Positions 4,597-55,283 of a stretch of DNA of 64,000 bases are shown here, piece after piece. The DNA is from Dictyostelium discoideum (taxonomy: Eukaryota), in assembly GCA_000004695.1 (NCBI GenBank), contig CM000151.3, positions 2,688,001 to 2,752,000 of the forward strand, given 5' to 3'. Position 1 is the first letter of the stretch. Each line of letters begins with the position of its first letter. A program made the position numbers and the translations under genes. The notes below the pieces were generated by a model. The model ran no database searches, was not told the DNA's origin, and saw only the letters and a program-made list of their open reading frames with translations.

Positions 4597-4633
<37 letters not shown>

Positions 4634-6755: not shown

Positions 6756-6798
<43 letters not shown>

Positions 6799-7175: not shown

Positions 7176-7310
7176 TTTATAATAGATTTTTTAAATTTAT
7201 TTTTATAAATATTATAATATATTTGGTTTAATTTAGTTAATGTAGAATAATTAATTTCTTTCAGTTTTGTTTTTTTTTATTATTTTTTTTTCCAAAAAAA
7301 AATATAATTG

Positions 7311-7343
<33 letters not shown>

Positions 7344-7627
7344 GAAATAAATAATTTTTAATATATATATATATTGATACTAAATTGTAAATGAAAAAAA
7401 GTGAATAAAAAAAAAATTGTTTAGTTCAAATACCTTTTTTTTTTAATTTTAATTATTTTATTTTTAATTTTTTTTTATTTTTTTTATTTTTTTTATTTTT
7501 TTTATTTTTTTATTTTTTATTTTTTAGATTTATAAAAAAAACATTATTTTTAATTAAAAAAAACATTGTTTTTAATTTCTAAATTTAACGGATTATTTTT
7601 CAAATAAGATTTGTCCGTTTTTTATTA

Positions 7628-7661
<34 letters not shown>

Positions 7662-8095
7662 AAATGCAAGTTGAGTTTTAAAAAGTCATAAAATGGAAAT
7701 TAAAAAAGATTCTTTTGGAAATTTTTTAAAGATTGGAAGAAATTGTAAAAATCATTTTCAATTTACAATATCAAACCAATTAATTCATTGAAAAAAAATT
7801 TTTTTTTTCAAATAATGTTTTATCCTGTATCCCTATGTTTTTTTTATTATTTTAAAAATAAAAAAAAAAAAAAATTAAATTTTTAATTAATAAATTAATA
7901 ATTAAAAAAAAAATCCATAACAAAAACAAAATAATTCTCTTGAAAAAATGTTTAAAATTAGATTGAATTTAATAAAAAATAAAAAAAAAAAAATAAAAAT
8001 ACCAAGTTTAAACAAAAATAAAAATAAAATAAAATTCCACTTTTTTTTTTTTTTTTTTTTGGTTATTTATTTTTTTTTTTTTTGATTTTAAAATT

Positions 8096-9063
8096 TTATT
8101 TCATTAATTCTAATTTATTATATTTACAATTATTTTTATTTGAACATTGTTGATCTAAAATTAAACTATTTGAAATGATTTTATTATAATCTTCAAAAGT
8201 GACATTGAATGGTTTGTTAACTGGGAATCCATCTTCAACAGATGATTGGACGGCTGTAATTGATCTTTTATCAGACCAACCACATGATGATGAACCAAAG
8301 AGATCTTGACAAATTTGTGATGATGCATCAATAATTGCCATACCTGCTTCTTCTTCAACACTAATATTTGGACCAGCATCAATAGTAATTGCTTTAACAC
8401 AAACACCATAGAAACTAAATTTTTTTTTTTTTTTTTTTATATTTTTTTTCCAAAATTTTAATTTTAATATTAATATTTTTTAAAAATGTTTAAAATGAAA
8501 ATAGTTTAAATCTTACCCTCCAGTTTCCATAGTTGAGCCACTACCGCTTCCACTTGAACCACCACTTCCACTTGAACTGCCACTACCACTTCCACTTGAA
8601 CTACCACTTGAAGAACTACCTGATGTACCACTTCCACTTCCACTTCCACTACCACTACCACTACCACTTCCACTTCCACTTCCGCTTGAAGTTGAGGTAC
8701 CTGCAGAACCTGTTCCACCAGTTGTTGTTGAACCACCACTTGTTGAACAAATTGTTAATGTTACACCACAACCAAAACGTTGACTATCTGCAGTCTATTA
8801 TTTATGTTGTAAGTACAATAATTACTTTATCAAAAAATAAAAAACAAAAATAAAAATAAATGCTTTCTATACTTTACAAAGTAAGTTTGGGCTGAACATG
8901 GAGTTCCACAGGCAGTAGATTCATCACAAAAAGTAGTAAGATAATATTCATTATTGCTTGGAATAGAGCAACACATATTACCATAGCATGGGTTACTACA
9001 ACTATATTGACCACTAACGGTTAAAACAAAAATAAGTAAAATCAAAGTTACCAAGAGTCTCAT
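8096..9063 (-). CDS. Small secreted Cys-rich protein with an internal Gly/Ser/Thr linker; 3 exons: 9063..8878, 8794..8517, 8414..8096
   Basis: Signal peptide MRLLVTLILLIFVLTVSGQ followed by a Cys-rich module (CSNPCYGNMCCS..CDESTACGTPC). Exon 2 encodes TADSQRFGCGVTLTICSTSGG plus a long (SG)n/(GS)n tract. Exon 3 encodes ..FYGVCVKAITIDAGPNISVEEEAGMAIIDASSQICQDLFGSSSCGWSD.. Splice donors GTAAAG (atypical) and GTAAGA; acceptors AATAG and TTTAG; phases are consistent. The domain family is not identified. Confidence 0.5.
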
Positions 9064-9139
9064 TTTTATTTGTTAAAAAATAAAGTAAAATAAAGTAAAA
9101 TAAAATTAAATAAAAAAAAAAAAAAAAAAAAAAAAGTTG

Positions 9140-9235
9140 GTTTTAAAATAAAATAAAATAAAATAAAATAAATAAAATAAAATAAAATAAAATAAAATAA
9201 AATAAAATAAAATAAAATAAAATAAAATAAAATCA
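9140..9235. repeat. (TAAAA)n / (AAAAT)n microsatellite
   Basis: Direct reading: 'aaaataaaataaaataaaat...' for about 95 bp. Confidence 0.85.
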
Positions 9236-10233
9236 AAAAAAAAAAATCATTTTCTTTTTTTTTTTCATTTTCCCAAACGAAAACCCATTTTTTTTTTAAC
9301 CAAAATATCTTAAAACTATTTTTATTTTTATTTTTTTCCACACTTTTCACAATTATTTTTCTATTTTTGTTGGGACACACAATAATCATTTTACAAATTA
9401 TATTTTTATCATTAAAAAAAAAAAAAAAAAAATCATTTAAATACAAATAAATTACAAAAACTTTTGAAATAATTTATCTTTTTTTTTTTTATGTATTATT
9501 TGGAAATAATTTTGATGATTTGAAAAGATATTAAAATAATAAAAAAAAAAAAAAAAAAAAATTGGAGAAAGATATAAATTCCAAATAATAAAAAGTTTTA
9601 TAAAAAATTTTATTTGTTATTTTTAAAAAAAAAATTTAGTAATCCTGGATGTTCATTTTTATTTTTATTTTTTTTATTTTTTATTTTTTTATTTTTTTTA
9701 ATCCAATTCTCAAAATAAAGAGACCACCAACCACGTTTATTTTTATAATAAAAAAAAATATATATGTTAGAAAAATAATAAAAAAAAATAATAATAAAAA
9801 TAATAAAAACTGTGATTACCTTTACTTCATTCAATGAATTTTTTTTTGAAAAGCAATAATTATTTGTTAATGGTGTTTAAATTTCATTTCAAATTTGTTG
9901 TGAAATCTTTGAAAATTCTGTTTGAAAAAAAAAAAATAAAAAAAAAAATAAAAAAAAAATAAAAAATTAAAAAAAAAAAATTGCATTTAAATTTTTTTTT
10001 TTTTTTTATAAAAATTATATATTAAATCGTTTTTTCTTTTTGCGTCATACTATTAATTAATAGTATAAATTATTTATTCTTAATAAATAAATAAATAAAA
10101 TTTTATTTATTGTAACATCAATTAGCAACAACAACAACAATAATAGTAATAATAATAATAATAATAATAGTAATAATAAAATAATAATAAAAATAATAAA
10201 ATAATAAAAAAAAATAATAAAATAATAAAAAAA

Positions 10234-27891: not shown

Positions 27892-29923
27892 TTATAAATT
27901 ATTTAAATATAAATTTTTAATATCTGTATATATTTGTTGACTTTCAAATACATGATCAGGTAATTTAAAATTATTATCATTTAAAAATTTAGAAATGATT
28001 AATCTTTGGATTTTACCACTTTTAGTTTTTGGTAATTGTTCAACAATTATTATATGTGTTAATTGAGCAAATTTATCAATATCTTGTGTGATGATACTAT
28101 TAATTTCATTTTTTAATTGAATTAAGTCGACATTTGAATCTTGTTGTTTTAAAGTTAATAAACCAATTGGTTTATTATAACAATCTGGATTGTAAATACC
28201 AATTGAACAACATTCAATAACATTTGGATGTTTTAAAATTGATGTTTCAATTGTGTTTAATTGAACTTTATTACCACCAATTTTAATTTGATCATCTGCT
28301 CTTGAAACGATAGCATAATATCCATTTTCATCTTTATAACCTAAATCACCACTACTATAATAACCTGGGAATTTTGTTAAAACTTTTTTAAATTGTTCAT
28401 CATTTTTATAAAATGTTGAAGCGAATCCAGGTGGTAATGGTAATTTGAATACGATTTCACCAATTTGATTCACTGGTAATTCAATACCATCTTCTGATAA
28501 AATTGATGGGTAGACAAATGGTGATGGTGGACCAACTGTGTTGTATGGATTTTTTTTTGATTTTATGTAATCGAATAAATACAAATAACCAGTTTCAGTT
28601 TGACCATATCCAATAGATGGTCTTGATTTTAGTTTGTTTTCAATATATTCTGGAATTGAATCTTCAATAACTTCACCACCATTCCAAATTGATTTTAAAC
28701 TTGAAATATCATATTTTGAATGTATTTGTTTTGCATCTGGATCAACTTTATTTAAATATCTTATTGTTTTTGCTAATGTTAGAAATGCACTAACTTTATG
28801 CTTTTCAACAATTGACCAAATATCATCTTCCATATGTTTTGGTTTTACAATTCCACCTTCAAACATCACAAATGAACATCCATGTAATAATGAAGCATAC
28901 AAAAATGAATGAAACGATACCCATCCTATACTAGTATGAGAAAAGAAAGTAGTATTTTTTTGAACAATTGATGGCCAAAGATAACCAAAACAAACTAAAT
29001 GTGGACCATTACTTCTAACAACTCCTTTTGAATTACCAGTTGTACCACTTGTATAAATAATGTAAAGTGGATGACTTGATTCTACTGTAACATATTCATA
29101 GAATGGTGTTTGATTGTTTTCTTTAATTTTGTTGATTTCCAAGTCCCAATCCAAAGAAGATGGTACAGTAGGTATAGTTTCAATTATTGATAATTGTGCA
29201 TCGGAACTAATTAAATCTCTATTATGTGTAATTACATGATCTGGTTTAAAAGTTGATATTTCAATTGCTTCAATTAAATTTGGTGTAAATGTAATAATTT
29301 CCTCATTTAAAATACCATAATTTGAGGTAATAATAACTTTTGGTCTTACAGCTTCAATTCTATCTATTAAACTTTTTGTTGAATAGCCATCGAATAGTAC
29401 ACAATGAGTTGCACCAATACGAGCACATGATAACATTGCAATTGGTGCTTCAACTGTATTTGCCATAAATATTAAAATATTATCATTTTTTGAAATATTT
29501 AAATTTAAAAGTACTCTTGAAAATTCACATACTTTTTCATATAATTGATAATAAGTTAATTTAACAGTTTTCTTTAAAAATGGACATTCATAAATTAATG
29601 CGTCTTGATCTCTTTTTAATGGATTTTGAACTTGAATATCTAAAACATTATAACATGTATTTAATTCACCACCTTTAAACCAATCTGGATACATTTCATC
29701 ACCACTATAAACTTTATCATACATTTTATCCCTTTTTTTTTAAATTATTTATTGGTATAATTGGAATTTTATTATATTTTTTAAATTATTAATAATTTAT
29801 TTTACAAAATTTTTAAACTTACCAATGTATATATTTTTTGGCAATGTCATCCCAAAATGAAACAGGTTGGGATTCTGCATATTTTAGATCATTTTCATAA
29901 TCAAAAGGATCACTTAATTTCAT
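27892..29923 (-). CDS. ACSS3/PrpE-like short-chain acyl-CoA synthetase (AMP-binding superfamily), paralog A; exons 29923..29823 and 29731..27892
   Basis: Exon 1 encodes MKLSDPFDYENDLKYAESQPVSFWDDIAKKYIHW (the AcsA/PrpE N-terminal 'FW.E.AK...W' motif). Exon 2 gives (W)DKMYDKVYSGDEMYPDWFKGGELNTCYNVLD.., YTSGTTGNSKGVV (A3), GYGQTETG (A5), GDLGYKDENGYY..SRADDQIKIGGNKV (A7/A8), and LPKTKSGKIQR (A10 catalytic Lys). Donor GTAAGT; acceptor AAAAG|G. The exon 1 / exon 2 junction is in phase 2. Confidence 0.85.
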
Positions 29924-30099
29924 TTTTTTCCAAAATTATTTTAATAAAATAAAATTAAAAAAAAAAAAAAAAAAAAAAAAAGTTTATTAATCTTTTTTTT
30001 TTTTTTTTTTATTTTATCGAAGATTTTTTTTTTTTTTTTTGTCAAAAAATCTTAATAAAAATTAATCAGCAAATTTAAAAAAGAAAAAAATTGGTCTGA

Positions 30100-30450
30100 A
30101 ACTCTTTTAATTGTTTTCTTTAAAAATGGACATTCATAAATTAATACATCTTATTCTCTTTTTAATGGATTTTTAATATGAATATCTATTAAATTATAAC
30201 ATGTATTTAATTCACCACCTTTAAACCAATCTGGATAAATTTCATCACCACTATAAACTTTATCATACATTTTATCCCTTTTTTTTTTTTTTTTTATTTA
30301 TTATATGTTAAAATTTGTTTTTTTTTTTTTTTTTTTTTTTTTTTGTGAAGTGCATACCAGTGAGCTTCGTCCCAAAATTAAATTGGATTAATTTGAGAGA
30401 AATTGTAATCATTTTCATAATCAAAAGGATCACTTAATTTAAACATTTTA
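30100..30450 (-). pseudogene. 5' remnant of an ACSS3-like paralog (exon 1 plus the first ~55 codons of exon 2), carrying stop codons
   Basis: The reverse complement encodes MFKLSDPFDYENDYNFSQINPI*FWDEAHWY and MYDKVYSGDEIYPDWFKGGELNTCYNLIDIHIKNPLKRE*DVLIYECPFLKKTIK, after which homology ends abruptly. Confidence 0.7.
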
Positions 30451-31021
30451 TTTTTTTCGTTGTTTTTTCGTTGTTTTTTCAAGTTTTTGTAATTAATTAA
30501 TAAAAAAAAAAAAATTTAAAAATCATTATATTTTATTTTTTAAAAAAAATAAAATTTAAAAGTAAAAATAAATTTTATGTGAAAAAAAAAAAGTGGAAAA
30601 CATAAAATGTGGAAATTTAAAATAAAACTTTTTCATTATTTATCCTTTTAAAGAAAATAATGAATTAAAATAAAAAGAAATTATAGATGGATATATTTTA
30701 TCAAAGATGAAAAAAAAAAAATACTTGTTTATTGTGGAATTTTAATTATTTGTTTATTTTTTTGTCTTTTAATAAAATATATTAAAAAAGTTTCGGGTTA
30801 TAAACAACCAACCACAAAAATTTTCAATACAAATAAAAATAAGTAAATGTATTAAAGGGGTTAAATTAAAAAACACGCACTGTGTCTGTGTGGAATATTT
30901 TTATGTGAAAAAAAACTCTTACTTATAAAATTACTTTTATATTGAACAAAAAATAAATAATTGAATTATAAAAATATATATATTTATTTATTTTTATTAT
31001 AGATTAAAATTTTTTTTTGGA

Positions 31022-33057
31022 TTAAATATTTTTATTTGAGTTTTTAATAAAAGAATCTTTTATGTTATAAAATAATTGAAGATTTTCAATATTATCTGGT
31101 AATTTAAAATTATTGTTATTTAAATAATTAGAAAGTATATGTCTTTGAATTTTACCACTTTTAGTTTTTGGTAATTGATTTACAATGATAATTTGTTTTA
31201 GTTCAGCATAACTTTCAATATCATCATTAATAATATTATTAATTTCATTTTTTAATTGATTGAAATCTAAAATTGAATCTTGTTTTTTTAAAACCAATAT
31301 ACCAATTGGTGCTTTATAACAATCATAATCATTAATACCAATTGAACAACATTCAATAACATTTGGATGTTTCAAAATTGATGATTCAATTGTATTTAGT
31401 TGAACTTTATTACCACTAATTTTAATTTGATCATCAGCTCTTGAAACAATACCATAATATCCATTTTCATCTTTATAACCTAAATCACCAGAATTATAAT
31501 AACCTGGAAATTTTGAAAATAATTTTTTATATTGTTCATCATTTTTATAAAATGTAGTCGCAAATCCAGGTGGTAATGGTAATTTGAGAGAGAATTCACC
31601 AATTTCATTAACACCCAACTCTTTACCATCTTCAGATAATATTGATGGTTTAATAAATGGTGATGGTATACCTACTGTATCATATGTTTTATTTATACTT
31701 GAATATTCATAAATATACATCATTCCACTTTCAGTTTGACCATATAAACCAATTGATTCAGCATTTAATTTATTTTCAATATAATCTTGAATTGATTTTT
31801 CAATAACTTCAGCACCAATCCAAACTTGCTTTAAACGTGATATATCATATTTTGAATGTAATCTTTCAGCATTGGGATCCATTTTCTTAAGATATCTCAT
31901 TACAATTGGTAATGCTAAATAAATGTTTACATTATGTTTTTCAATGGTTGCCCAAATGTCATCTTCAACATTATTTTGTTTTAAGAAACCACCTTCAAAC
32001 ATTACAAATGTATTTCCTTTTGATAATGATGCATAAAAGAACATATGGAATGACACCCATCCAACACTAGTTGCAGAAAATAAAACTACATTTTCATCAT
32101 TATTAACCTTTGAACTTAAACAATTCCAATGATATAAAAGTCCAACCAAATTACTACCATTACTTCTTACAACTGGTTTAGAATTACCAGTTGTACCACT
32201 TGTATAAATTAAATAGATTGGATGACTTGATTCTACTGGTACATAATCATAAAATGGTGATTGATTATTAATTTTAATTTTTTTAATTTCTTCTTCCCAA
32301 TTTAATGAATTTGGTATTATTGTTTGGAAATTATTATTATTATAAACAATATCATTTCTATAAAGTGTTATTACATTGTCAGGCTTAAAAGTTGATAATT
32401 CAATTGCTTCTTTTAAATTTGTAGTAATATCAACAATTTCATCAAGTCCAACTCCCAAATTTGTTGTAATTATTAATTTTGGTGTAATTGTTTCAATTCT
32501 ATCTATTAAACTTTTAACTGAATAACCATCGAATAAAGCACAATGAGTTGCACCAATACGAGCACATGATAACATTGCAATTGGTGCTTCAACTGTATTT
32601 GCCATATAAATTAAAACATTATCATTTTTTGAAACATTTAAATTCAAAAGTACTCTTGAAAATTCACATACTTTTTCATATAATTGATAATAAGTTAATT
32701 TTACAGTTTTCTTTAAATATGGACATTCATAAATTAATGCAACTTGATCTTTTTTTAATGGATTCTGAACTTGTCTATCTAATAAATTATAACATGTATT
32801 TAATTCACCACCTTTAAACCAATCTGGATAAATTTCATTACCACTATAAACTTTATCATACATTTTATCCCTTTTTTATTTTTAAATTATATTTATAAAA
32901 AATTTAATTATTTATTTAACTAATTATGTTTTTTTTTATTGTATGCATACCAATAAACATATTTAGTGGCTACTTGATCCCAAAATGAAATTGGGTCGGT
33001 GTTTATTGAGAATTTATAATCATTTTCATAATTGAATGGTTGGCTTAATGTATACAT
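31022..33057 (-). CDS. ACSS3/PrpE-like acyl-CoA synthetase paralog B; exons 33057..32951 and 32870..31022
   Basis: Exon 1 encodes MYTLSQPFNYENDYKFSINTDPISFWDQVATKYVYW followed by the donor GTATGC. Exon 2 is a 613-aa ORF with all AMP-binding motifs (YTSGTTGNSKPVV, LYGQTESG, SRADDQIKISGNKV, LPKTKSGKIQR). Confidence 0.85.
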
Positions 33058-33910
33058 TATTTTAATAGTTTTTATAAAAATATATTTTTATTATTAAAAT
33101 TTTCAATAATATTGGATTATATAAAAAATGTAAATATAAGTTTTTTTTTTTTTTTTTTTTATAATTTAAAATTGATAACTCTTCATATAATATTTACATT
33201 TAATAAAAAAAAAAATTTAAAAAATAAAAATTTTACGACGTCATTTAATTGTTTTGAGATATCTTTAGACTTTTTAATAATTAAAATATTATTTAATTTC
33301 ATTCTAATTAAGCCTATAGATATTACTTTTTTGAAATTATTTTTAAAAAAGGTATTTTTATGTACTTTAAAAAAGTAAATTGTATTTTTAATTATTAATA
33401 ATCAAAATGAAAAAATGAAAATATATTGTTTTTTTTTTAAATATTAATTGATTTCATTTATGTCTGTCCCTTAATGGTGAAATTATTACCCCCTTTCTAT
33501 GTAGGTAAATCATTTTTAATCTTTTTTTTTTTATTTTGTTTTTTTTTTACCTTTTCAAGTACTTGAATTTTATATTATTATCTTTTTTTTTTTTTTTTTT
33601 AATTTTTAAAAAATTAATAATAATTCTTTTAATTAAAAATTAAAATATAAAAAAACACATGGGGGAGGGGGTAAAAACCACAATGGGTAATTTATATATA
33701 CATTGGGTTGAATTTTATATTAACTTATTTCTTATTTTTTTAATTTTTTAATTTAACACTATTCTAATCCTAATTAAAAAAAAATGTTTTTAATAATTTT
33801 TCCATATTAGAGGTTAATATTTTACTTTTTTAATTTTTGGTAATTTTATTTAATATTAAATTTGAAAATTTTTAAATTTTTTAGTAAAAACAAACTTTCA
33901 AAAGATACTC

Positions 33911-34017
<107 letters not shown>

Positions 34018-34018
34018 A

Positions 34019-36024
34019 TTATAAATCTTTAATTTTATAAAAGATTTCAACATCACAAACATTATCTGGTAATTGAAAATTTGTATCATTTAAATATTTA
34101 GAAATGATTTGTCTTTGAGTTTTACCAACTTTAGTTTTTGGTAATTGTGGAACTATTAAAATTTTTCTTAAAATTGCAAAATTTTCTATATCCTTTGATA
34201 TTATTGTATTAATTTCAGATTGTAATTTATTTAAATCAATTTGTCGAATTGATTGATTTTCTTCTTGTTGTTTTAAAACTAATATACCAATTGGTACATT
34301 ATAACAATCTGGATTATTAATACCTATTGAACAACATTCTAAAACTAATGGATGTTTTAAAATTGATGTTTCAATTTTATTTAATTGAACTTTATTACCA
34401 CTGATTTTAATTTGATCATCTGATCTTGAAACAACACCATAACAATTATTTTCATCTTTAAATCCTAAATCACCAGGGTAATAGTAACCTGGAAATTTTG
34501 TAAATAATTGTTTAAACTTTTCATCATTTTTATAAAATGTAGTTGTAAAACCTGGTGGTAAAGGTAATTTAAATACAAGCTCACCAATTTCATACAAAGG
34601 TAATTCCTTACCATCATCTGAAAAAACCTTTGCTTTTAAAGATGGAAATGAAACTCCACATGTATTAATTGGAATTTTTAAATTTTTATTATCAAAACCT
34701 AAAAATAAACGACACCTGTTTCAGTTTGACCATATACACGAGTTGATTGAACTTTTAATTTCTCCTGAATATAATTTGAAATTGATTCTTCAATTGGTTC
34801 TCCACCAAGTACCATTTCTTTTAAATTAGATAAATCATACTTTGAATGTAAATTTTTACAATCAGGATCAACTTTAATTAAGTATCTAATTGCTTTAGCC
34901 ATTGTGAATGCACAACTTACTTCATTTCTTTCAATAATTTCCCAAATATCATCTTCCATATGTTTTGGTTTTGTCACTCCTCCTTCAGACATAACTAATG
35001 TATATCCAACTGAAAATAAACCATATAATAGATTATGAAATGATACCCAGCCAATACTTGTATGAGAAAACACAACTTTTATTTTACCCTTTTGTATCAA
35101 TGTTTGATATTTAATACCTACCATATATGGACCATTACTTCTAACAACTGCTTTAGCACTACCAGTTGTGCCACTTGTATATATTATATATAATGGATGA
35201 CTTGATTCTACTGGAACATATTCATAAAATGGTAATTGATTAATTTCTTTGAATTTTTTAATTTCATCATACCAACTTAATGTATTTGGTATCGTTGGTA
35301 TATCATTTACTTTCTTTAAATCTGATTCGCTTGTAATATCATTTCTAAATAAAGTAATTACATTACTTGGTTTAAAAGTTGATAATTCAATTGCATCTTT
35401 TAAATTTGGTGTAAATGTAATAATTTCATCATTAAAAATACCATAATTTGTTGTAATTATTAATTTTGGTGTAATTGTTTCAATTCTATCTATTAAACTT
35501 TTAACTGAATAACCATCGAATAACACACAATGAGTTGCACCAATACGAGCACATGATAACATTGCAATTGGTGCTTCAATTGTATTTGACATATAAATTA
35601 AAACATTATCATTTTTTGATATATTTAAATTTAAAAGTACTCTTGAAAATTCACATACTTTTTCATAAAATTGATAATAGGTTAATTTTATATTTTTGTT
35701 TAAAAATGGACATTCATAAATTAATGCAGTTTGATCTCTTGTTTCTGGATTTTTTATATGAATATCTAAAACATTATAACATGTATTTAATTCACCACCT
35801 TTAAACCAATCTGGATAAATTTCATCACCACTATAAACTTTATCATACATTCTATCCCTTTTTTTTTAATTTTAAATTATTAGTTTTTTGCAATGACAAT
35901 TGAAAAAATAAAAAAAAGAAATAAAAACTTACCAATAAACTAAATCCTTTGCAACTTCATCCCAAAATTCTATTGGTCTGTTATTTGCTAAATCAATTTC
36001 ATTTTCATAGTTAAATTTATACAT
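34019..36024 (-). pseudogene. ACSS3-like paralog C, disrupted (frameshift/indel region at about 34600..34700 splits the ORF into 383-aa and 192-aa pieces); exon 1 at 36024..35933
   Basis: Exon 1 (MYKFNYENEIDLANNRPIEFWDEVAKDLVYW, followed by GTAAGT) and the N-terminal 383 aa are intact. Relative to paralog D, the segment corresponding to D 37650..37720 is replaced by a shorter divergent sequence, which changes the frame. The C-terminal 192 aa resume in another frame. This could also be an assembly or sequencing error. Confidence 0.6.
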
Positions 36025-36204
36025 TTTTTTATTAAATTAAACGATATTAATAAAATAAAATAATAATAAAAAAAAAAATAATGGTACATAAAAAAAAAAA
36101 AGTTTAAAACAATTAACAAATTGGGTATGGGATTTATAACCTTTTTTTACATATATTTGTAATAATTAATATTATCCTATTGGTTCAAAAACATTGAAAA
36201 AAAA

Positions 36205-36300
36205 AAACTTTAATACGGACATTCATAAATTAATGCATCTTGATCTATTTTTAATGGATTTTTCATATGAATATCTAAAACATTATAACATGTATTTAAT
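36205..36300 (-). pseudogene. Short fragment of the 5' part of ACSS3-like exon 2
   Basis: The sequence 'acggacattcataaattaatgcatcttgatctatttttaatggatttttcatatgaatatctaaaacattataacatgtatttaa' matches the reverse complement of the ..CYNVLDIH.KNP..DQDALIYECP.. region of the paralogs, with no flanking ORF. Confidence 0.6.
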
Positions 36301-36526
36301 TTTTTAAAAAATTTTATTATGTATCTTATCTTTATTTAAATTTTGAACCAATAAGATAAAATAAAAAAATAAAGATGAATTACAAATTGGGGTGTATAAG
36401 ATATAATTTAAATATTTTTATTTTATTATTACTAGCTATTTTTATTTTTATTATTATTATTATTATTATTATTTATTATTATTATTATTATTTATTATTA
36501 TTATTATTATTAATTTAATTACCACC

Positions 36527-36890
36527 AAAATACAGATACTTTCTCTTTCTTGTAAAATTATTAACAATTAATGAGGTTAGTAACATTCCTAAAGAACCCG
36601 ATGCCACAGGTAAGGATATATAATAAAAACCTCTTCAGCATTGTTCAGCACTCATAACACAAATTAAGGCAGTGGCACCACCGGGTGGATGTATTGATTT
36701 TGTGAAATGCATCCCGACAATTGCTAAACTGACCGCTAAAGAGTGCTACTTCAGTTTGAGCATTTGTATAAACCAAATGCACTCTAATGATTGAACCTAT
36801 ATGTCGAAATACTAAATTTCTTGGTTGAGCTAATGGTGATTTGGTGCTCCAAAAATTAATACAGTAGATGCTGCAAATGAACCTATTATT
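36527..36890 (-). pseudogene. Degenerate partial copy of the HPP-family gene at 39455..40390 (3' two-thirds), with indels and stop codons
   Basis: About 85-90% nucleotide identity to 39455..39830, seen in runs such as 'ttaccaccaaaatacag', 'caggtaaggatatataataaaaacctct' and 'ggcagtggcaccaccgggtggatgtattgattttgtgaaatgcatcccgacaattgctaaactgaccgctaaag'. It is interrupted by deletions. It is flanked by the same (ATT)n tract and upstream block as the intact copy. Confidence 0.75.
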
Positions 36891-36944
36891 ATTATTTTAT
36901 TATTATTATTATTATTTTATTTTTATTATTATTATTATTATTAC

Positions 36945-37006
<62 letters not shown>

Positions 37007-37010
<4 letters not shown>

Positions 37011-39011
37011 TTAACATTATTATATAAATCCTTGATTTTATAAAAGATTTCAACATCACAAACATTATCTGGTAATTCATAATTTATATCATTTAAATAT
37101 TTAGAAATGATTTGTCTTTGAATTTTACCAGCTTTGGTTTTCGGTATTTGTGTAACTATTAAAGTTTTTCTTAAAATTGCAAAATTTTCTATATCTTTTG
37201 AAATGATTATATTAATTTCAGATTGTAATTTATTTAAATCAATTTGTTGAATTGATTGATCTTCTTGTTGTTTTAAAACTAAAAAAGCTATTGGTACATT
37301 ATAACAATCTGGATTATAAATACCTATTGAACAACATTCTAAAACTAATGGATGTTTTAAAATTGATGTTTCAATTTTATTTAATTGAACTTTATTACCA
37401 CTGATTTTAATTTGATCATCTGATCTTGAAACAACACCATAACAATTATTTTCATCTTTAAATCCTAAATCACCAGGGTTATAGTAACCTGGGAATTTTG
37501 TAAATAATTGTTTAAACTTTTCATCATTTTTATAAAATGTAGTTGCAAAACTTGGTGGTAATGGTAATTTAAATACAAGCTCTCCAATTTCATTAACACC
37601 TAATTCTTTGCCATCATCTGAAAAAATCATTGCTTTTAAAGATGAAAATGGAAAGCCACTTGTGTTAATAGGAATTTTTAAATTTTTATAATCATAACAA
37701 TAAAAATAACATGCTCCAGTTTCAGTTTGACCGTATACACGAATTGACTTTACTTTTAATTTCTCTTGAATATAATTTGGAATTGATTCTTCAATTGGTT
37801 CTCCACCAACTATTATTTCTTTTAAATTTGATAAATCATACTTTGAATGTAAATTTTTACATTCAGGATCAACTTTAATTAAGTATCTAATTGCTTTAGC
37901 CATTATGGATGCACAAGTTACTTTATTTCTTTCAATAACTTCCCAAATATCATCTTCCATATGTTTTGTTTTAGTAAGCCCACCTTCAAACATAACCAAT
38001 GTATATCCAAGTGATAATAAACCATTAAAAGCATTATGAATTGATATCCACCCAACACTTGTATGATAAAATACTACTTTTGTTTTACCCTTTTGTATCA
38101 ATGTTTGATATTTAATACCAACTAAATGTGGACCATTACTTCTAACAGCCCCTTTAGAATTACCAGTTGTACCACTTGTATATAGTATATATAATGGATG
38201 ACTTGATTCTACTGGTACATATTCATAAAATGGTAATTGATTATTTTCTTTGAATTTTTTAATTTCATCATACCAACTTAATGTATTTGGTATCGTTGGT
38301 ATATCATTTACTTTCTTTAAATCTGATTCGCTTGTAATATCATTTCTAAATAAAGTAATTACATTACTTGGTTTAAAAGTTGATAATTCAATTGATTCTT
38401 TTAAATTTGGTATGAAATTAATAATTTCATCATTAAAAATACCATAATTTGTTGTAATTATTAATTTTGGTGTAATTGTTTCAATTCTATCTATTAAACT
38501 TTTAACTGAATAACCATCGAATAACACACAATGAGTTGCACCAATACGAGCACATGATAACATTGCAATTAATGGTTCTAATGTATTTGACATATAAATT
38601 AAAACATTATCATTTTTTGATATATTTAAATTTAAAAGTACTCTTGAAAATTCACATACTTTTTCATATAATTGATAATAAGTTAATTTTACAGTTTTCT
38701 TTAAATATGGACATTCATAAATTAATGCATCTTGATCTCTTGTTTCTGGATTTTTAATATGAATATCTAAAACATTATAACATGTATTTAATTCACCACC
38801 TTTAAACCAATCTGGATATATTTCATCATCACTATAAACTTTTTCATACATTTTATCCCTTTTATTTTTAAATTATTAGTTTTTTGTCAAGACAATTTAG
38901 AAAAATAAAAAAAACTTACCAATGAACTAAATCCTTTGCAACTTCATCCCAAAATTCTATTGGTTGGTTATTTGCAAAATCAATATCATTTTCATAATTA
39001 AACTTATACAT
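37007..39011 (-). CDS. ACSS3/PrpE-like acyl-CoA synthetase paralog D; exons 39011..38920 and 38858..37007
   Basis: Exon 1 encodes MYKFNYENDIDFANNQPIEFWDEVAKDLVHW followed by GTAAGT. Exon 2 is a 614-aa intact ORF and the closest relative of pseudogene C. Confidence 0.85.
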
Positions 39012-44162: not shown

Positions 44163-44197
<35 letters not shown>

Positions 44198-45818: not shown

Positions 45819-48217
45819 ATGAATAGATTAAGTGAACCATTTAATTATGACAAAGACTTCAGCTTTTCAAATAACCAACCAATAGAATTTTGGGATGAAG
45901 TTGCTAAGAATTTCGTTCATTGGTTTGTATTCAGTAACAATTTTATAATTTTTAAAAGTATTTTTAAATAAAATAATTTTTTAACACATACAATTTAAAA
46001 TTTTAAATAATAATAAAAAAAAAGGGATAGAATGTATGATAAAGTTTATAGTGGTGATGAAATTTATCCAGATTGGTTTAAAGGTGGTGAATTAAATACA
46101 TGTTATAACGTTTTAGATATTCATATTAAAAATCCTGCAAAAAGAGATCAAGATGCATTAATTTATGAATGTCCATTTTTAAAGAAAACAATTAAACTAA
46201 CATACTATCAATTATATGAAAAAGTATGTGAATTTTCAAGAGCACTTTTAAATTTAAATGTTTCAAAAAATGATAACGTTATAATTTATATGGCAAATAC
46301 AGTTGAAGCACCAATTGCAATGTTATCATGTGCTCGTATTGGTGCAACTTATTGTACATTATTTGATGGTTATTCAGTTAAAAGTTTAATAGATCGAATT
46401 GAAACAATTACACCAAAATTGATTATCACAACAAATTATGGTATTTCAAATGATGAAATTATTACATTTACACCAAATTTAAAAGAAGCAATTGAACAAT
46501 CAAATTTTAAACCAAATCATATAATTATACATAATAGAGATGATGGTGATTATAATGCAAATTTAACTTTAAAAACAATAATTGAAACAATACCAACGAT
46601 ACCAAATACATTAAGTTGGTATGATGAAATTAAAAAATTCAAAGAAAATAATCAATCACCATTTTATGATTATATACCAGTAGATTCAAGTCATCCATTA
46701 TATATTCTATATACAAGTGGTACAACTGGTAACGCTAAAGCAGTTGTAAGAAGTAATGGTCCACATTTAGTTGGTGTTAAATATACATGTAGATGTATGT
46801 TTTTAAATGATGAAGTTAATAATAATAATACTAATTCAGATTTAATTAAATTCTTTTCACATTCAAGTATTGGTTGGGTAACATTTCATGGTTTTCTATA
46901 TTCATTATTATCAACAGGGAATATTTTTATAATGTTTGAAGGTGGAATTTGTGAATTAAATCAAATCAAGTATCAACTTTGGAAAGTTATTGAAAAACAT
47001 AAGGTAAACAAATTTTTTATTGGTCCTAAATCAATTAGACTTTTAATTAAAGATGACCCAAATGCAGAGTTTATATTATCAAATTATAATTTATCAAGTT
47101 TAAATACAATTTTAGTTGGTGCTGATGTAGTTGAAAAATCAGTTGCAAATTATATTGAAAACAAATTAAAAAAATCTGCTTCAAATATATATGGTCAAAC
47201 TGAAACTGGTAATATATATTTATTTGATTTTAAAAAATCAAACAGATCCAATGTTAGCAGTAATAGTAACAGTAGTGGTAGTGGTAGTGGTAGTGGTAGT
47301 GGTAGTGGTAGTGGTAGTGGTAGTGGTAGTGGTAGTGGTTGTGGTAGTGGTAGTGGTAGTGGTAGTGGTAGTGGTAGTGGTAGTGGTAGTAGTAGTGGTA
47401 GAGGTAATATAATGGTAATTGGTCAGCCAACTCCTTCTTTAAAATCATTCATACTCTCTGAAGAAGAAGAAGAGGAAGTTTGTTATAATAATAGTGATGT
47501 TGGTGGTGGTAATAGTGTTTGTAGTGGTAGTAGTAGTGGTAGTGATAGTGGTACGAGTAGTGGTAAAAAATCATTAAATAAAAATGAAATTGGAGAGTTG
47601 GTATTTAAATTACCTTTACCACCTGGATTTGCATTAACCTTTTATAAAAATAATGAACAATTTAAAAAATTATTCAAAACAAATTTATTGAATATGGAAA
47701 AAGGTTATTATTATTTTTCAGGTGATTTGGCATTTAAAGACCAAGATAATAATTTTACAATCGTTTCAAGATCAGATGATCAAATAAAAATTAAATCAAA
47801 TAAAGTACAATTAAATACAATTGAAATTTCAGTTTTAAAACATCCATTGGTTTTAGAATGTTGTTGTATTGGTATTAAAGATGTAGAATTCTTGACTGTA
47901 CCAATTGGTATTCTAATATTAAATAATCAAAATAATCAAAATAATCAAAATAATCAAAATAATCAAAATAATAATCCAATTGAATTAAAAGAATTAGAAA
48001 AAGAAATAAATATGATAATTTCAAATGATATTGATAATCATCAATATTAAGAAGAATAATAGTTGTTAAGAAAATACCAAAGACAAAAAGTGGAAAAAAT
48101 ACAAGATCAATATTATCAAAATTATTAAATGATATCAATTTTGTTTTGCCAAGTAATATTAATGACTATGAATTATTTTTAGAAATTAAAGAATCTTTTA
48201 TAAATAAAACAGTTTGA
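45819..48217 (+). CDS. ACSS3-like paralog E, divergent, with low-complexity insertions and an apparent -1 frameshift near the C-terminus (possible pseudogene); exons 45819..45922 and about 46024..48050, with a frameshifted tail to 48217
   Basis: Exon 1 encodes MNRLSEPFNYDKDFSFSNNQPIEFWDEVAKNFVHW and ends at the donor GTTTGT. Exon 2 retains YTSGTTGNAKAVV and GQTETG, but carries insertions: (SG)n of about 40 residues, an E-rich/Cys stretch, and an (NQN)n run. The motif region is altered (YYFSGDLAFKD, KIKSNKV). After ..NDIDN the conserved C-terminus (IIVVKKIPKTKSGKNTRSILSKLLND..) continues only in the +2 frame. The displayed ATG sits at 46031, while the ORF track starts at 46032. Confidence 0.6.
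47275..47400 (+). repeat. (AGTGGT)n hexanucleotide coding repeat, about 20 copies, encoding (SG)n
   Basis: Direct reading 'agtggtagtggtagtggt...'. It causes the V-rich and HY-rich artefact ORFs 47191..47412 and 47254..47448 in other frames. Confidence 0.9.
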
Positions 48218-48551: not shown

Positions 48552-50602
48552 ATGTATAGACTAAGCGAACCATTTGATTATTTAAATGATAAAACTTATG
48601 CAAATAATGAGCCAGAAGCTTTTTGGGATGAAGTTGCAAAGAAATTAATTAAATGGTAATTATTTGTTTATTTTTTTTTATATATTAATAATTACTAATT
48701 AAAATAACAATTTTTTTTTTTAAAATAAAATAAAAAAGGGATAAAATGTATGATAAAGTTTATAGTGGTGATGAAATGTATCCAGATTGGTTTAAAGGTG
48801 GTGAATTAAATACATGTTATAATGTTTTAGATAGACAAGTTCAAAATCCATTAAAAAGAGATCAAGATGCTTTAATTTATGAATGTCCATATTTAAAGAA
48901 AACTGTTAAATTAACATATTATCAATTATATGAAAAAGTATGTGAATTTTCAAGAGTACTTTTAAATTTAAATATTTCAAAAAATGATAATGTTTTAATT
49001 TATATGGCAAATACATTGGAGCCTTTAATTGCAATGTTATCATGTGCTCGTATTGGTGCAACTCATTGCACAATATTCGATGGTTATTCGGTTAAAAGTT
49101 TAATAGATAGAATTGAAACAATTACACCAAAATTAATAATTACAACAAACTATGGTATATTAAATGATGAAATCATTACATTTACACCAAATTTAAAAGA
49201 TGCAATTGAACAATCAACTTTTAAACCAAGTAATGTAATTACTTTATTTAGAAATGATATTACAAGCGAATCAGATTTAAAGAAAGTAAAAGATATACCA
49301 ACGATACCAAATACATTAAGTTGGTATGATGAAATTAAAAAATTCAAGGAAAATAATCAATCACCATTTTATGAATATGTTCCAGTAGAATCAAGTCATC
49401 CATTATACATAATATATACAAGTGGTACAACTGGAAATTCTAAAGCAGTTGTAAGAAGTAATGGTTCACATATGGTTTGTTTGAATTACTTTAACCGATA
49501 TATTTCAGAAAATAATCAAAGTACAACATTATTGACAACTTCAAGTGTTGGATGGGTATCATTTCATGGTTTCCTATATGGTATGTTGTCATTTGGATCT
49601 ACATTTGTAATGTATGAAGGTGGTATTATAAAAAATAAACATATTGAAGTTGACCTTTGGAATACCATTGAAAAACATAAAGTAACACATGCATTATCAT
49701 TGGCAAGCGCTATTAGATACCTTATTAAAACTGATCCTGAAGGAACAATCCTTCGTTCAAAGTATGATTTATCAAATTTAAAAGAAATATGGATTGGTGG
49801 TGAACCAATTGAAGAATCAATTTCAGAATACATTGAACAAAAGTTAAAAATAAAATCAACAAGGGGATATGGTCAAACTGAAATTGGTATAACTTATTTA
49901 TATTGTTTTGGTCATATTAATATCCCATACTACGCAACTGGTTTACCATCAATTTTCATTAGACCATCAATATTTTCAGACGATGGTAAAGAATTAGGTG
50001 TTAACGAAATTGGTGAAATCGCATTCAAATTACCAATGCCACCAAGTTTTGCAACTACATTTTATAAAAATGATGAAAAGTTTAAACAATTATTTTCAAA
50101 ATTTCCAGGTTACTACAATCCTGGTGATTTAGGTTTTAAAGATGAAAATGGATTTTATACAATTGTTTCAAGATCAGATGATCAAATTAAAATCAGTGGT
50201 AATAAAGTTCAATTAAATACAATTGAAACATCAATACTAAAACATCCATCAGTTTTAGAATGTTGTTCAATTGGTATTAACGATCCAACTTGTTATAGTG
50301 TACCAATAGCCTTATTAGTTTTAAAACAACAACAACAACAGCAACAAGATCAGTCAACTCGACAAATAGATTTAAATAAATTACACTCTGAAATTAATAA
50401 TATCATTACACAAGATATTGCATCATTAGCAGTCTTAAGAAAAATTGTAATTGTTAATCAATTACCAAAAACAAAAACTGGTAAAATTCCAAGACCAATT
50501 ATATCAAAGTTTTTAAATGATTCAAATTTTCTATTACCCGATAACATCAGTAATGTTGAAATATTTTATGAAATCAAAGAATTATATACGAAAATTAATT
50601 AG
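48552..50602 (+). CDS. ACSS3/PrpE-like acyl-CoA synthetase paralog F; exons 48552..48655 and 48739..50602
   Basis: Exon 1 encodes MYRLSEPFDYLNDKTYANNEPEAFWDEVAKKLIKW followed by GTAATT. Exon 2 is a 618-aa intact ORF with all AMP-binding motifs and a short Q-rich insertion (KQQQQQQQDQS). Confidence 0.85.
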
Positions 50603-50730
50603 TCTTTATAAAAAACAAGTTTTTTTTTTTTAAAACCATTTATTGTTTTTTTTTTTTTATTTGTGTTTAAAATTTTTTTATTTTTTTAATTTTTTTTAAA
50701 ATCTTGTTTTTTTTATTATTAAACAGCTCA

Positions 50731-50774
50731 AAAGTGTTTGTAGTTATTTGTTTTTTTTTTTCAACACCCCAATT
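50731..50774 (+). promoter_or_regulatory. Conserved upstream element of paralog G: 'AAAGTGTTTGTAGTTATTTGTTTTTT..CAACACCCCAATT' (about 150 bp 5' of the ATG)
   Basis: Near-identical blocks lie at 53323..53360 upstream of H and at 55284..55328 upstream of I. A degenerate version sits at about 48210..48245 upstream of F. Each has a GT-rich half followed by ACACCCC(C)A. Confidence 0.35.
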
Positions 50775-50883
50775 TTTTTTTTTTTTTTTTTTTTTTTTTC
50801 AAATCTTGTTTTATTTTATTTATTATTTTTAATTGTTTTTTATTACAATTATATAAATTATTCATTTAATTTTAACCTAAAAT

Positions 50884-52904
50884 ATGTTTAAACTTAGTAA
50901 TCCTTTTAATTATTTAAATGATTTTAATTATGCAAATTCTTATCCTGAGGCTTTTTGGGATGAAGTTGCAAAAAAGAATGTTTTTTGGTAAGATAATCCA
51001 TTTTTCTACAAAAAAAAAAATTAAAAACAAAAACTAATATATTTAAAAGGGATAAAATGTATGATAAAGTTTATAGTGGTGATGAAATGTATCCAGATTG
51101 GTTTAAAGGTGGTGAATTAAATACATGTTATAATGTTTTAGATATTCAAGTTCAAAATCCATTAAAAAGAGATCAAGACGCTTTAATTTATGAATGTCCA
51201 TATTTAAAGAAAACTATAAAATTAACATATTATCAATTATATGAAAAAGTATGTGAATTTTCAAGAGTACTTTTAAATTTAAATATTTCAAAAAATGATA
51301 ATGTTTTAATTTATATGGCAAATACTTTAGAACCATTAATTGCAATGTTATCATGTGCTCGTATTGGTGCAACTCATTGTGTATTATTCGATGGTTATTC
51401 AGTTAAAAGTTTAATAGATAGAATTGAAACAATTACACCAAAATTAATAATTACAACAAACTATGGTATTTTTAATGATGAAATTATTACATTTACACCA
51501 AATTTAAAAGATGCAATTGAATTATCAACTTTTAAACCAAGTAATGTAATTACTTTATTTAGAAATGATATTACAAGCGAATCAGATTTAAAGAAAGTAA
51601 AAGATATACCAACGATACCAAATACATTAAGTTGGTATGATGAAATTAAAAAATTCAAGGAAAATAATCAATCACCATTTTATGAATATGTTCCAGTAGA
51701 ATCAAGTCATCCACTATATATTATTTATTCAAGTGGTACAACTGGTAATGCTAAAGCAGTTGTAAGAAGTAATGGTCCAAATTTAGTTTGTATGAATTAC
51801 TTTGACAGATATATTTCAGAAAAATATGAATGTACAACATTATTGACAACTTCAAGTGTCGGATGGGTATCATTTCATGGTTTCCTATATGGTATGTTGT
51901 CATTTGGATCTACATTTGTAATGTATGAAGGTGGTATTATTAAAAACAAACATATTGAAGTTGACTTTTGGAATACCATTGAAAAACATAAAGCGACACA
52001 TACATTATCATTGGCAAACACTATTAGATACTTTATTAAAACTGATCCTGAAGGAACAATTATACGTTCAAAGTATGATTTATCAAATTTAAAAGAAATA
52101 TGGGTCGGAGGTGAAGTAATTGAAGAATCAATCCCAGAATACATTGAAAAAAAGTTAAAAATAAAACCAACAAGGGGATATGGTCAAACTGAAATTGGTA
52201 TAGCTTATTTATATTGTTTTGATCATATTAATATCCCATACTACGCAACTGGTTTACCATCAATTTTCATTAGACCATCAATATTTTCAGACGATGGTAA
52301 AGAATTAGGTGTTAACGAAATTGGTGAAATCGCATTTAAATTACCAATGCCACCAAGTTTTGCAACTACATTATATAAAAATGATGAAAAGTTTAAACAA
52401 TTATTTTCAAAATTTCCAGGTTACTACAATCCTGGTGATTTAGGTTTTAAAGATGAAAATGGATTCTATACAATTGTTTCAAGATCAGATGATCAAATTA
52501 AAATCAGTGGTAATAAAGTTCAATTAAATACAATTGAAACATCAATACTAAAACATCCATTAGTTTTAGAATGTTGTTCAATTGGTATTAACGATCCAAC
52601 TTGTTATAGTGTACCAATAGCCTTATTGGTTTTAAAACAACTACAACAACAAGATCAATCAATTCAACAAATTGATTTAAATAAATTACAAAATGAAATA
52701 AATTATATAATTAAACAAGATATTGAATCATTAGCGGTCTTAAGAAAAATTGTAATCGTTAATCAATTACCAAAAACAAAAACTGGTAAAATTCCAAGAC
52801 CAATTATATCAAAGTTTTTAAATGACTCGAATTTTCAATTACCTGATAATGTCAATAACGTTGAAATATTTTATGAAATCAAAGAATTATATATGAAAAA
52901 TTAA
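50884..52904 (+). CDS. ACSS3/PrpE-like acyl-CoA synthetase paralog G; exons 50884..50987 and 51050..52904
   Basis: Exon 1 encodes MFKLSNPFNYLNDFNYANSYPEAFWDEVAKKNVFW followed by GTAAGA. Exon 2 is a 615-aa intact ORF, about 90% identical to F. Confidence 0.85.
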
Positions 52905-53322
52905 TCTTTATAAAAAATTGACAGTTTTTTTTTTAATCATTTATTGTCATTTTTTTTTGTTTTTAAAATTATTTTTAAAAATTCACAAAAAATAATAACA
53001 TTAGCAAATAAAATAATTATTAAAATTTTATTTATATATCATATTTTGTTTTGTCTTTAAATTTAAATATTCATATATTTTAATTTTTTACTCTACAATA
53101 ACCAATGTTTTTAGTCATTTTTTTTTTATAATAATTTTCTATAATTTTTTAAAGATATTTTTCCTTTTTTTATTTAATATTGCAGTATTAGTAATCTAAG
53201 AAAAATATTTGGAAAGAAAAAAATTGAGATCCAAATGTAAAAATTCCTTTTAATCTGTTTTATCATTAAGAAAAGTTTTATATTTTATATAATAAAAATA
53301 TTTCTTAATTACAAAACAAATT

Positions 53323-53486: not shown

Positions 53487-55040
53487 TAAAATAAGAATGT
53501 TTAAACTTAGTGATCCTTTTAATAATTTAAATGATTTCAATTATGCAAATTCTTTTCCTGAGGCTTTTTGGGATGAAGTTGCAAAAAAGAATGTTTTTTG
53601 GTAAGATAATACATTTTTTTCTTTATATAAAAAATATAAACAAAAACTAATATTTTTAAAAGGGATAAAATGTATGATAAAGTTTATAGTGGTGATGAAA
53701 TGTATCCAGATTGGTTTAAAGGGTGAATTAAATACATGTTATAATTTATATGAAACAAGTCTAAAAATAAAGATAAACAAGTTCAAAATCCATTAAAAAG
53801 AGATCAAGATGCATTAATTTATGAATGTCCATATTTAAAGAAAACTGTAAAATTAACATATCATCAATTATATGAAAAAGTATGTGAATTTTCAAGAGTA
53901 CTTTTAAATTTAAATATTTCAAAAAATGATAATGTTTTAATATATATGGCAAATACGGTTGAAGCACCAATTGCAATTTTATCATGTACTCATAATGGTG
54001 CAACTCATTGTGTATTATTCGATGGTTATTCAGTTAAAAGTTTAATAGATAGAATTGAAACAATTACACCAAAATTAATAATTACAACAAACTATGGTAT
54101 TTTTAATGATGGAATCATTAATTTCATCACAAATTTAAAAGAATCTATTGAATTATCAACTTTTAAACCAAGTAATGTAATTACTTTATTTAGAAATGAT
54201 ATTACAAGCGAATCAGATTTAAAGAAAGTAAAAGATATACCAACGATACCAAATACATTAAGTTGGTATGATGAAAATAAAAAACTTAAAGAAAATAATC
54301 AATCACCATTTTATGAATATGTACCAGTAGAATCAAGTCATCCACTATATATTATTTATTCAAGTGGTACAACTGGTAATGCTAAAGCAGTTGTAAGAAG
54401 TAATGGTCCAAATTTAGTTTGTATGAATTACTTTAACAGATATATTTCAGAAAAATATGAAAATATAAAATTATTTACATTTTCAAATGTCGGATGGATA
54501 TCATTTCATGGTTCCCTATAAGGCTTGTTGTCATCTGGATCTACATTTATAATGTATGAAGGTGGTATTATAAAAAACAAATATATTGAAGTTGACTTTT
54601 GGAATACCATTGAAAAACATAAAGTGACACATGCATTGTCATTGGCAAGCACTATTAGATACTTTATTAAAACTGATCCTGAAGGAACAATTATACGTTC
54701 AAAGTATGGTTTATCAAATTTAAAAGAATTTATGGTTGGAGGTGAAGTAATTGAAGAATCAATCCCAGAATACATTGAAAAAAAGTTTTAAAGCAAAAAC
54801 AAGATCAATCAACTCAATTGATTTAAATAAATTACAATCTGAAATTAATAATATCATTACACAAGATATTGAATCGTTAGCAGTCTTGAGAAAAATTGTA
54901 GTTGTTAATCAATTACCAAAAACCAAAGCTGGTAAAACTCCAAGACCAAAGTTTTTAATGATTCAAATTTTCAATTTCCAGATAATATCATTGACATTGA
55001 AATATTTTATGAAATTAAAGAATTATATATGAAAAGTTAA
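53487..55040 (+). pseudogene. ACSS3-like paralog H, a pseudogene with frameshifts, an insertion, internal stops and a roughly 0.6-kb internal deletion
   Basis: Exon 1 is intact (MFKLSDPFNNLNDFNYANSFPEAFWDEVAKKNVFW, GTAAGA). In exon 2, 'aaagggtgaatt' replaces 'aaaggtggtgaatt' (a 2-nt deletion), and there is an insertion at about 53745..53775. Stops fall after HGSL and after EYIEKKF. The segment between the codon-360 equivalent and the C-terminal codon-480 equivalent is missing. The catalytic-site region is mutated (CAR to CTH). Confidence 0.8.
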
Positions 55041-55083: not shown

Positions 55084-55123
<40 letters not shown>

Positions 55124-55283
55124 AAATTTTGAATCGAATTAATTTACAAAATATATGTTAAATGATATAAAATAGATTCAAATATTGTGAATAAAATTGG
55201 AAAATTTTAAAATGATTATAATAATTGGTCAATTAATGAAAATTGTATTTAATAAAAAACTGTTAAATAATAAAACAGTTTAA

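Follow-up and report, generated by a model that had tools for sequence, protein, structure and literature searches.

The closest described relatives of the genes examined here are PrpE and Acs (PDB 5GXD and 1PG4). The Dictyostelium family shares with them three Pfam domains (ACAS_N, AMP-binding, and AMP-binding_C) and recognizable A3, A5, A7, A8, and A10 motifs, and 5GXD and Acs structures are its top matches in both sequence and fold. The family differs from them in that identity is only ~33 to 38%, its scores fall far under the equivalog cutoffs, and all of its members carry YGQTETG where PrpE and Acs carry WWQTETG. Judging from the literature on Trp414 of Acs, this substitution suggests a different, probably larger, acyl substrate and pocket.

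Within the family, the immediate point of comparison is the array of "acetyl-CoA synthetase-like" genes on chromosome 2 of Dictyostelium discoideum (DDB_G0273211, DDB_G0273215, DDB_G0273225, DDB_G0273227, DDB_G0273229, DDB_G0273305, and DDB_G0273365). One copy, here called E, matches these genes in its level of purifying selection. Unlike them, it lies basal to the group-4 expansion and has suffered a frameshift in strain AX4, and its low-complexity inserts are much longer than theirs. Four such loop inserts also set E apart from PrpE and Acs. Triplet and hexamer coding repeats are a general property of D. discoideum, in which they encode amino acid runs whose length varies among strains, apparently neutrally (Scala et al. 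2012, PMC3460934).

Results

The window analyzed is a 64,000-nucleotide stretch of AX4 chromosome 2 (GenBank assembly GCA_000004695.1, contig CM000151.3, forward-strand positions 2,688,001 to 2,752,000; G+C content, ~22%), and it holds an array of ~12 Acs/PrpE-like acyl-CoA synthetase genes. Copies in the window were 100% identical to AX4 proteins DDB_G0273211, DDB_G0273215, DDB_G0273305, DDB_G0273229, and DDB_G0273365, and copy F (48552-50602), which adjoins E, corresponds to DDB_G0273225/DDB_G0273697. When F was searched against the window with tblastn, we found four full-length copies and two fragments on a minus-strand arm (27919-38851) and eight copies on a plus-strand arm running from 45819 to the window end. 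E heads the plus-strand arm, as an earlier reading made from the sequence alone (the sequence-only reading) had placed it, and is separated from the minus-strand copies by ~7 kb containing four unrelated genes. Two-exon structure, domains, and tandem location are common to E and the other array members. Other dead copies within the window are m3, H, and two fragments.

Within the array, E represents a lineage that is old and branched off early. Its mean identity to the other members was 61%, and in the tree it stood at the base of the group-4 expansion as the most divergent array lineage, on a long branch. Accelerated evolution was considered and rejected: identity to the D. purpureum outgroup was 45.8% for E versus 45.4% for the other copies, and the basal long branch therefore reflects age, not acceleration. 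Outside Dictyostelium, the nearest relatives were bacterial proteins named propionyl-CoA synthetase (33 to 38% identity). E, represented by its orthologue in the ACTFIW assembly, scored 306, 258, and 305 bits against NCBIfam models NF007815, TIGR02316, and TIGR02188, respectively, below the PrpE/Acs equivalog cutoffs of 955, 827, and 725 bits. F likewise fell under them (382, 328, and 376 bits). A literature search by family name and DDB_G identifiers returned no mention of the array genes. The family is best described as an uncharacterized, Dictyostelium-expanded Acs/PrpE-like group (AMP forming, ANL superfamily).

The features of E are listed in Table 1. Joining exon 1 to position 46025 gave ...HWDRMYDKVYSG, in agreement with the family N terminus, and the intron position recurs in F (48656-48738) and in E orthologues.

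Table 1. Features of acyl-CoA synthetase copy E (window coordinates)
Feature	Position	Strand	Remarks
Exon 1 (MNRLSEPF...FVHW)	45819..45922	+	ATG at 45819; ends CATTG
Intron	45923..46024	+	GT...AG, 102 nt
Exon 2, frame 0 to premature stop	46025..48050	+	With exon 1, 709-aa truncated product
A3/P-loop-like motif YTSGTTGNAKAVV	46710..46748	+	Within family variation
(AAT)n poly-Asn tract	46817..46835	+	Shortest in AX4; orthologues 27-51 nt longer
A5 motif YGQTETG	47190..47210	+	
(GTAGTG)22.5 microsatellite	47272..47406	+	96% matches; encodes 43-residue SG tract
Acidic (GAA)n run and second Ser/Gly/Cys-rich low-complexity insert	47460..47565	+	
A7 region GYYYFSGDLAFKD	47703..47741	+	Asp kept; E-lineage variant of GYYNPGDLGFKD
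A8/hinge region SRSDDQIKIKSNKV	47766..47807	+	E-lineage variant of ...ISGNKV
(NNQ)n tract	47921..47972	+	Perfect period-9 repeat AAATAATCA x 5.8
Frameshift site GATAATCAT	48033..48041	+	One A gone from ancestral AAA (Lys) codon
Premature TAA, frame 0	48048..48050	+	
Stranded C-terminal 59 codons plus TGA, -1 frame	48038..48217	+	Includes A10 PKTKSGK (48077-48097)

We recovered syntenic E from four further assemblies and aligned the sequences. ACTFIW and ACTFIZ carry intact orthologues of 753 and 758 aa. In ACTFIR, a 1,185-nt deletion removes the equivalent of window positions 46953-48136, and in ACTFIY the frame of E is broken by five indels. Only remnants with in-frame stops survive in the syntenic position of D. 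citrinum and D. dimigraforme; these were 69 to 82% identical to E versus 50 to 69% identical to other copies, and they bear the E-specific YYYF.GD and IKSN signatures. The corresponding syntenic site of D. firmibasis showed no trace of E. The strains labeled D. discoideum here are dS ~0.1 apart, and the sample therefore contains no close wild relatives of AX4.

Frame 0 of exon 2 ends at a premature TAA, and coding sequence continues in the -1 frame (SSILRRIIVVKKIPKTKSGK...) from 48038 to a TGA at 48215-48217, which bears out the earlier observation that the tail extends to 48217 in another frame. Three stops immediately before this stretch close the -1 frame, so the lesion must fall within 48036-48047. 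Protein alignment of E with F over this interval showed exactly one nucleotide missing, and the deletion site reads GATAAATCA in orthologues versus GATAATCA in AX4. ACTFIW, ACTFIY, and ACTFIZ have GATAAATCATCA (Asp-Lys-Ser-Ser; GATAAATCAT across the frameshift site) where AX4 has GATAATCATCA; AX4 therefore lost one A of the lysine codon (...DIDKSSILRR...). The sequence-only reading had suspected that one T was lacking at about 48030..48045. A single base is indeed gone there, but the three orthologues identify it as an A. The 59 stranded codons are free of stops, which has a chance of ~0.002 at this base composition. Scanning metagenomes for the site in its intact and deleted forms gave no match.

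A second assembly, GCA_054883475.1 (locus-tag prefix ACTFIT), was base-for-base identical to the window over 45819-48217, repeat lengths included. Across 14 kb it differed from the window at three other places, all outside E, through an A run 7 nt different in length, an indel of 9 nt, and two substitutions, and it is therefore not a copy of the reference. It represents the same or a near-identical strain, so that the agreement speaks to the reproducibility of the base call, not to the age or spread of the allele. Its annotation of E is a 709-aa product, exactly the truncated model. Resequencing had been set beforehand as the test of a suspected sequencing error in an A/T run; this independent assembly did not restore the frame. 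Its identity to the window across all of E, set against its differences nearby, makes a sequencing error unlikely. No exact match turned up for the 672-aa open reading frame (ORF), for the spliced product of 709 aa, or for the repaired product of 765 aa. The protein collection also lacked the annotated E of ACTFIT, ACTFIW, and ACTFIZ, and the absence of AX4 E from it is therefore uninformative about AX4 annotation.

The hallmarks of the enzyme family are present upstream of the lesion. ANL motifs A3 (TSGTTG.PK-like), A5 (GQTE), A7 (GD), and A8 (SR.DD) occur in E as YTSGTTGNAKAVV, YGQTETG, YYYFSGD, and SRSDDQIKIKSNKV, in keeping with the report from sequence alone that the P-loop-like motif and GQTETG are retained. 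That reading had also described the core motifs as altered. Variants do occur, but they are fixed across the E lineage and lie largely within family variation: the intact ACTFIW and ACTFIZ orthologues share them, the A7 variant is also found in the D. dimigraforme remnant, and the Gly column of ISGNKV is conserved in only 44 of 55 family members. E keeps 75 of the 78 family-invariant columns (those invariant in at least 54 of the 55 other family members) and changes the remaining 3. The AX4 ORF scored 158.9 bits for Pfam AMP-binding (PF00501; cutoff, 29.9), and AX4 E scored 28.3 bits for ACAS_N.

At the C terminus, the frame-0 product of AX4 matched AMP-binding_C (PF13193) at 17.5 bits, under the 24.5 cutoff, and over profile positions 2-39 of 76 only; the same domain scored 60.7 bits in F. 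The AX4 frame thus encodes an incomplete C-terminal domain, and its A10 lysine motif (PKTxSGK) falls after the stop. The motif is in frame in ACTFIW and ACTFIZ, and E of ACTFIW aligns to 5GXD as far as the C terminus. PKTKSGK of E aligns with PKTRSGK of PrpE 5GXD. The A10 lysine is needed by ANL enzymes for the adenylation half-reaction, and that of E corresponds to Lys609 of Salmonella enterica Acs; PDB entries titled "K609A" and "acetylated on Lys609" were among the structure matches to E. With the A10 motif lost and its lysine required in ANL enzymes, the 709-aa product of AX4 is predicted, from established ANL enzymology, to be catalytically dead. Because the premature stop falls in the last exon, a truncated protein might still be made and could retain some activity or a noncatalytic role.

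We modeled the 672-aa ORF of E with AlphaFold2 using a 53-sequence alignment (mean pLDDT, 79.7; pTM, 0.80). The model has the two-domain ANL fold. The best Foldseek match was 5GXD (E = 7e-48; TM-score, 0.70 when normalized to the query and 0.75 when normalized to the target), with Acs structures next. Values of pLDDT below 50 were confined to residues 403-458, 481-508, and 644-647, each on or within a low-complexity tract, and elsewhere the model can be superposed on the PrpE structure 5GXD and on Acs of S. enterica. The inserts are accordingly modeled as disordered loops. The SG tract lies inside the first of these segments, the acidic/Ser-Gly-Cys insert mostly within the second, and the NNQ repeat contains the third; the poly-Asn block (ORF residues 261-270, 10 residues) had a mean pLDDT of 55.

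The (SG)n microsatellite of roughly 40 residues noted from the sequence was readily measured (22.5 copies, 43 residues; Table 1), and the acidic EEEEEE run with its Cys-rich neighbor was located at 47460-47477 and, as a Cys/Ser/Gly-rich stretch, at 47478-47564. The N/Q run is also real, although its repeat unit is 9 nt and not the 6-nt AATCAA originally proposed. The view that the inserts were newly gained did not hold: every orthologue has its poly-N, SG-rich, acidic, and N/Q tracts in the four places where AX4 has them. All four tracts vary in length among AX4, ACTFIW, ACTFIY, and ACTFIZ, the acidic/Ser-Gly-Cys insert included. Specific to the AX4 lineage is only an expansion of the first SG tract, which is 108 nt longer than in ACTFIW (36 extra residues). 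Variation of the four tracts between strains is what is described for the polymorphic coding microsatellites of D. discoideum (PMC3460934), and only the size of the AX4 SG expansion is unusual by comparison.

Our estimates of selective constraint come from simple Nei-Gojobori counting and three-taxon parsimony and not from a likelihood model of branches, and comparisons involving ACTFIR were left out owing to a misaligned stretch beyond its deletion. Pairwise dN/dS for E was 0.22 (AX4-ACTFIW), 0.29 (ACTFIW-ACTFIZ, both intact), and 0.34 (AX4-ACTFIZ), each with P <= 1e-8 against neutrality. The intact neighbors F and G gave 0.16 to 0.38 in the same strains. On the AX4 branch of E there were 17 synonymous and 20 nonsynonymous changes (omega ~0.28, P = 2e-4 against neutrality); omega was raised, at ~0.47, on the ACTFIY branch with its five lesions. 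The dN/dS check that had been proposed for this branch departed from neutrality and gave a value like that of the neighbors. AX4 E shows neither a dN/dS near 1 nor an accumulation of lesions, as neutral evolution of a pseudogene would produce. Given an omega of ~0.28, a single lesion, and a stop-free tail, inactivation was recent. By these substitution counts, E was under purifying selection equal to that on its neighbors until recently.

Discussion

Our analysis makes it highly probable that E of AX4 is a normal, constrained two-exon enzyme gene that has turned into a very young pseudogene or loss-of-function allele. It carries a reproducible disabling lesion for which the intact ancestral state is documented. 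In the sequence of events that we propose, microsatellite tracts have long resided in four surface loops of E, with their lengths drifting freely. The AX4 (NC4-type) lineage then lost a single A from an AAA lysine codon at ~48036. Translation now terminates 4 codons past the deletion, leaving a 709-aa product without the last ~56 residues of the C-terminal domain, the A10 lysine included. Of the two fates suggested by the sequence-only reading, "decaying pseudogene" is correct insofar as a one-base deletion has disabled the gene, but with an omega of ~0.28 and a stop-free tail it is otherwise undecayed. AX4 E is neither long decaying nor neofunctionalized.

Two alternatives would leave AX4 with a full-length protein. 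If the frameshift were a sequencing or assembly error, AX4 would encode an intact protein of ~765 aa. This would account for a lesion that consists of a single base in an A run, an out-of-frame tail that is perfectly preserved, and an AX4 branch without relaxed constraint. We nevertheless give it very little credence, as the run is merely AAA versus AA, with no long homopolymer, and GCA_054883475.1 reproduces all of E down to the repeat lengths without being a copy of the reference. Expression might instead restore the frame, whether by programmed -1 frameshifting on the ribosome, by slippage during transcription, or by removal of a very small intron. An open, conserved frame does lie downstream, and -1 is the direction required. 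However, 48036-48047 (AATCATCAATAT) contains no X XXY YYZ slippery heptamer, long A/T run, or GT donor, and the orthologues simply possess the extra base, which makes such a rescue extremely improbable. Programmed frameshifting and a micro-intron were both rejected on direct reading of this interval.

Other alternatives concern function. The second fate put forward from the sequence was a neofunctionalized, possibly noncatalytic, paralog, either for the AX4 product or for E generally, with the loops and the A7 and A8 variants serving a new role and loss of A10 tolerated or favored. No other array lineage is as divergent as E, its A7 and A8 variants are specific and conserved, its inserts are unusually long, and a stop in the last exon need not, we infer, lead to mRNA degradation. 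Yet the intact orthologues keep A3, A5, the A7 Asp, A8, and the A10 Lys, that is, every hallmark ANL motif, along with 75 of the 78 family-invariant residues, and dN/dS is like that of the neighbors. Insert lengths vary among strains, the inserts are modeled as disordered, and both are expected of neutral Dictyostelium coding repeats (PMC3460934). Moreover, at least four other lineages have lost the gene outright, which points to dispensability over a new essential role. We regard neofunctionalization as quite improbable. It is also unlikely, in our judgment, that E is a conditionally useful enzyme maintained as a functional/nonfunctional polymorphism across the D. discoideum species complex, intact and constrained in some lineages and knocked out independently at least five times (the lineages counted being AX4, ACTFIR, ACTFIY, D. 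citrinum, and D. dimigraforme). If that reading were true, it would mean recurrent adaptive or environment-dependent loss of one particular substrate specificity and not just redundancy.

Returning to the interpretation of E as a recently inactivated enzyme gene, its separate losses in several related lineages agree with birth-and-death turnover among redundant tandem copies, and we infer that E is dispensable. E matters mostly for annotation: its frameshift in the AX4 reference is a genuine allele specific to the strain lineage and should be neither "corrected" nor modeled as a 709-aa enzyme. The gene also illustrates that an enzyme under constraint can accommodate long loops encoded by microsatellites. 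The case of AX4 is one of ordinary gene-family turnover, unsurprising for Dictyostelium, and E provides a clean, dated example of birth and death in an uncharacterized, Dictyostelium-specific Acs/PrpE-like expansion.

Frame changes, fragments, and copy number in the synthetase array

Frame changes in the AX4 acyl-CoA synthetase array are not confined to paralog E, the first copy of the plus arm. Copy H, also on the plus arm, has no equivalent of residues ~368 to 535 and switches frame twice, features that mark it as a deletion-bearing pseudogene. On the minus arm, the frame of copy m3 switches directly after GQTETGVVYF, at about 34700, so that m3 looks like another frameshifted family member. 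Two short N-terminal fragments lie between full-length minus-strand copies.

Across 14 kb, the window and GCA_054883475.1 (locus-tag prefix ACTFIT) differ only at the three sites in the table. With so few differences, GCA_054883475.1 is an independent assembly of a lineage that is identical, or almost identical, to that of the window. Its annotation splits H into two separate genes (294 and 152 aa) and calls a 622-aa protein (P0007) across the frame break in m3. The three annotated E orthologues have zero recorded Pfam hits despite clear AMP-binding domains, and they are missing from the protein collection searched, which looks like a database gap for these low-complexity-rich proteins.

Judged from these assemblies, array copy number differs among strains and species. 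The related strain ACTFIW has three F/G-like genes (L004 8001-15112), compared with two in AX4 (window 48552-52905). In ACTFIZ, D. citrinum, and D. dimigraforme, the plus arm holds far fewer copies ahead of the next unrelated gene. The D. citrinum minus-arm copy closest to the spacer is 77% identical to E over residues 36 to 279, whereas other copies typically share 62 to 69% with the N-terminal part of E. This excess raises the possibility of gene conversion between arm-proximal copies.

Features of the array and of related loci
Feature	Position	Strand	Remark
N-terminal family fragment	window 30058-30270	-	residues 1-75, 63% identity to F (neighbour of E)
Copy m3	window 34022-35850	-	frame change
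N-terminal family fragment	window 36213-36302	-	residues 20-49, 80% identity to F
A-run length difference, 7 nt	window 44163-44169		vs GCA_054883475.1
YGQTETG motif in E	window 47190-47210	+	same motif in all copies
Copy H	window 53670-55034	+	deletion, two frame changes
9-nt indel	window 55119-55127		vs GCA_054883475.1
Adjacent GG/AA substitutions	window 55199-55200		vs GCA_054883475.1
E orthologue, 709 aa	L003 (GCA_054883475.1) 3268-5499		annotated gene
E orthologue, 753 aa	L004 (ACTFIW) 5317-7701		annotated gene
E orthologue, 758 aa	L008 (ACTFIZ) 7356-9733		annotated gene
D. citrinum minus-arm copy closest to spacer, 656 aa	L007 1-876	-	

The YGQTE[TI]G motif and predicted substrates

The literature searched contained no mention of members of this Dictyostelium family. 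In place of the Trp-Trp of Acs and PrpE (WWQTETG), nearly all of them carry Tyr-Gly (YGQTE[TI]G; 52/55 members at the first position and 54/55 at the second). In Acs, the acetate pocket is gated by the second of the two Trp residues, so the Dictyostelium family probably activates larger carboxylates.
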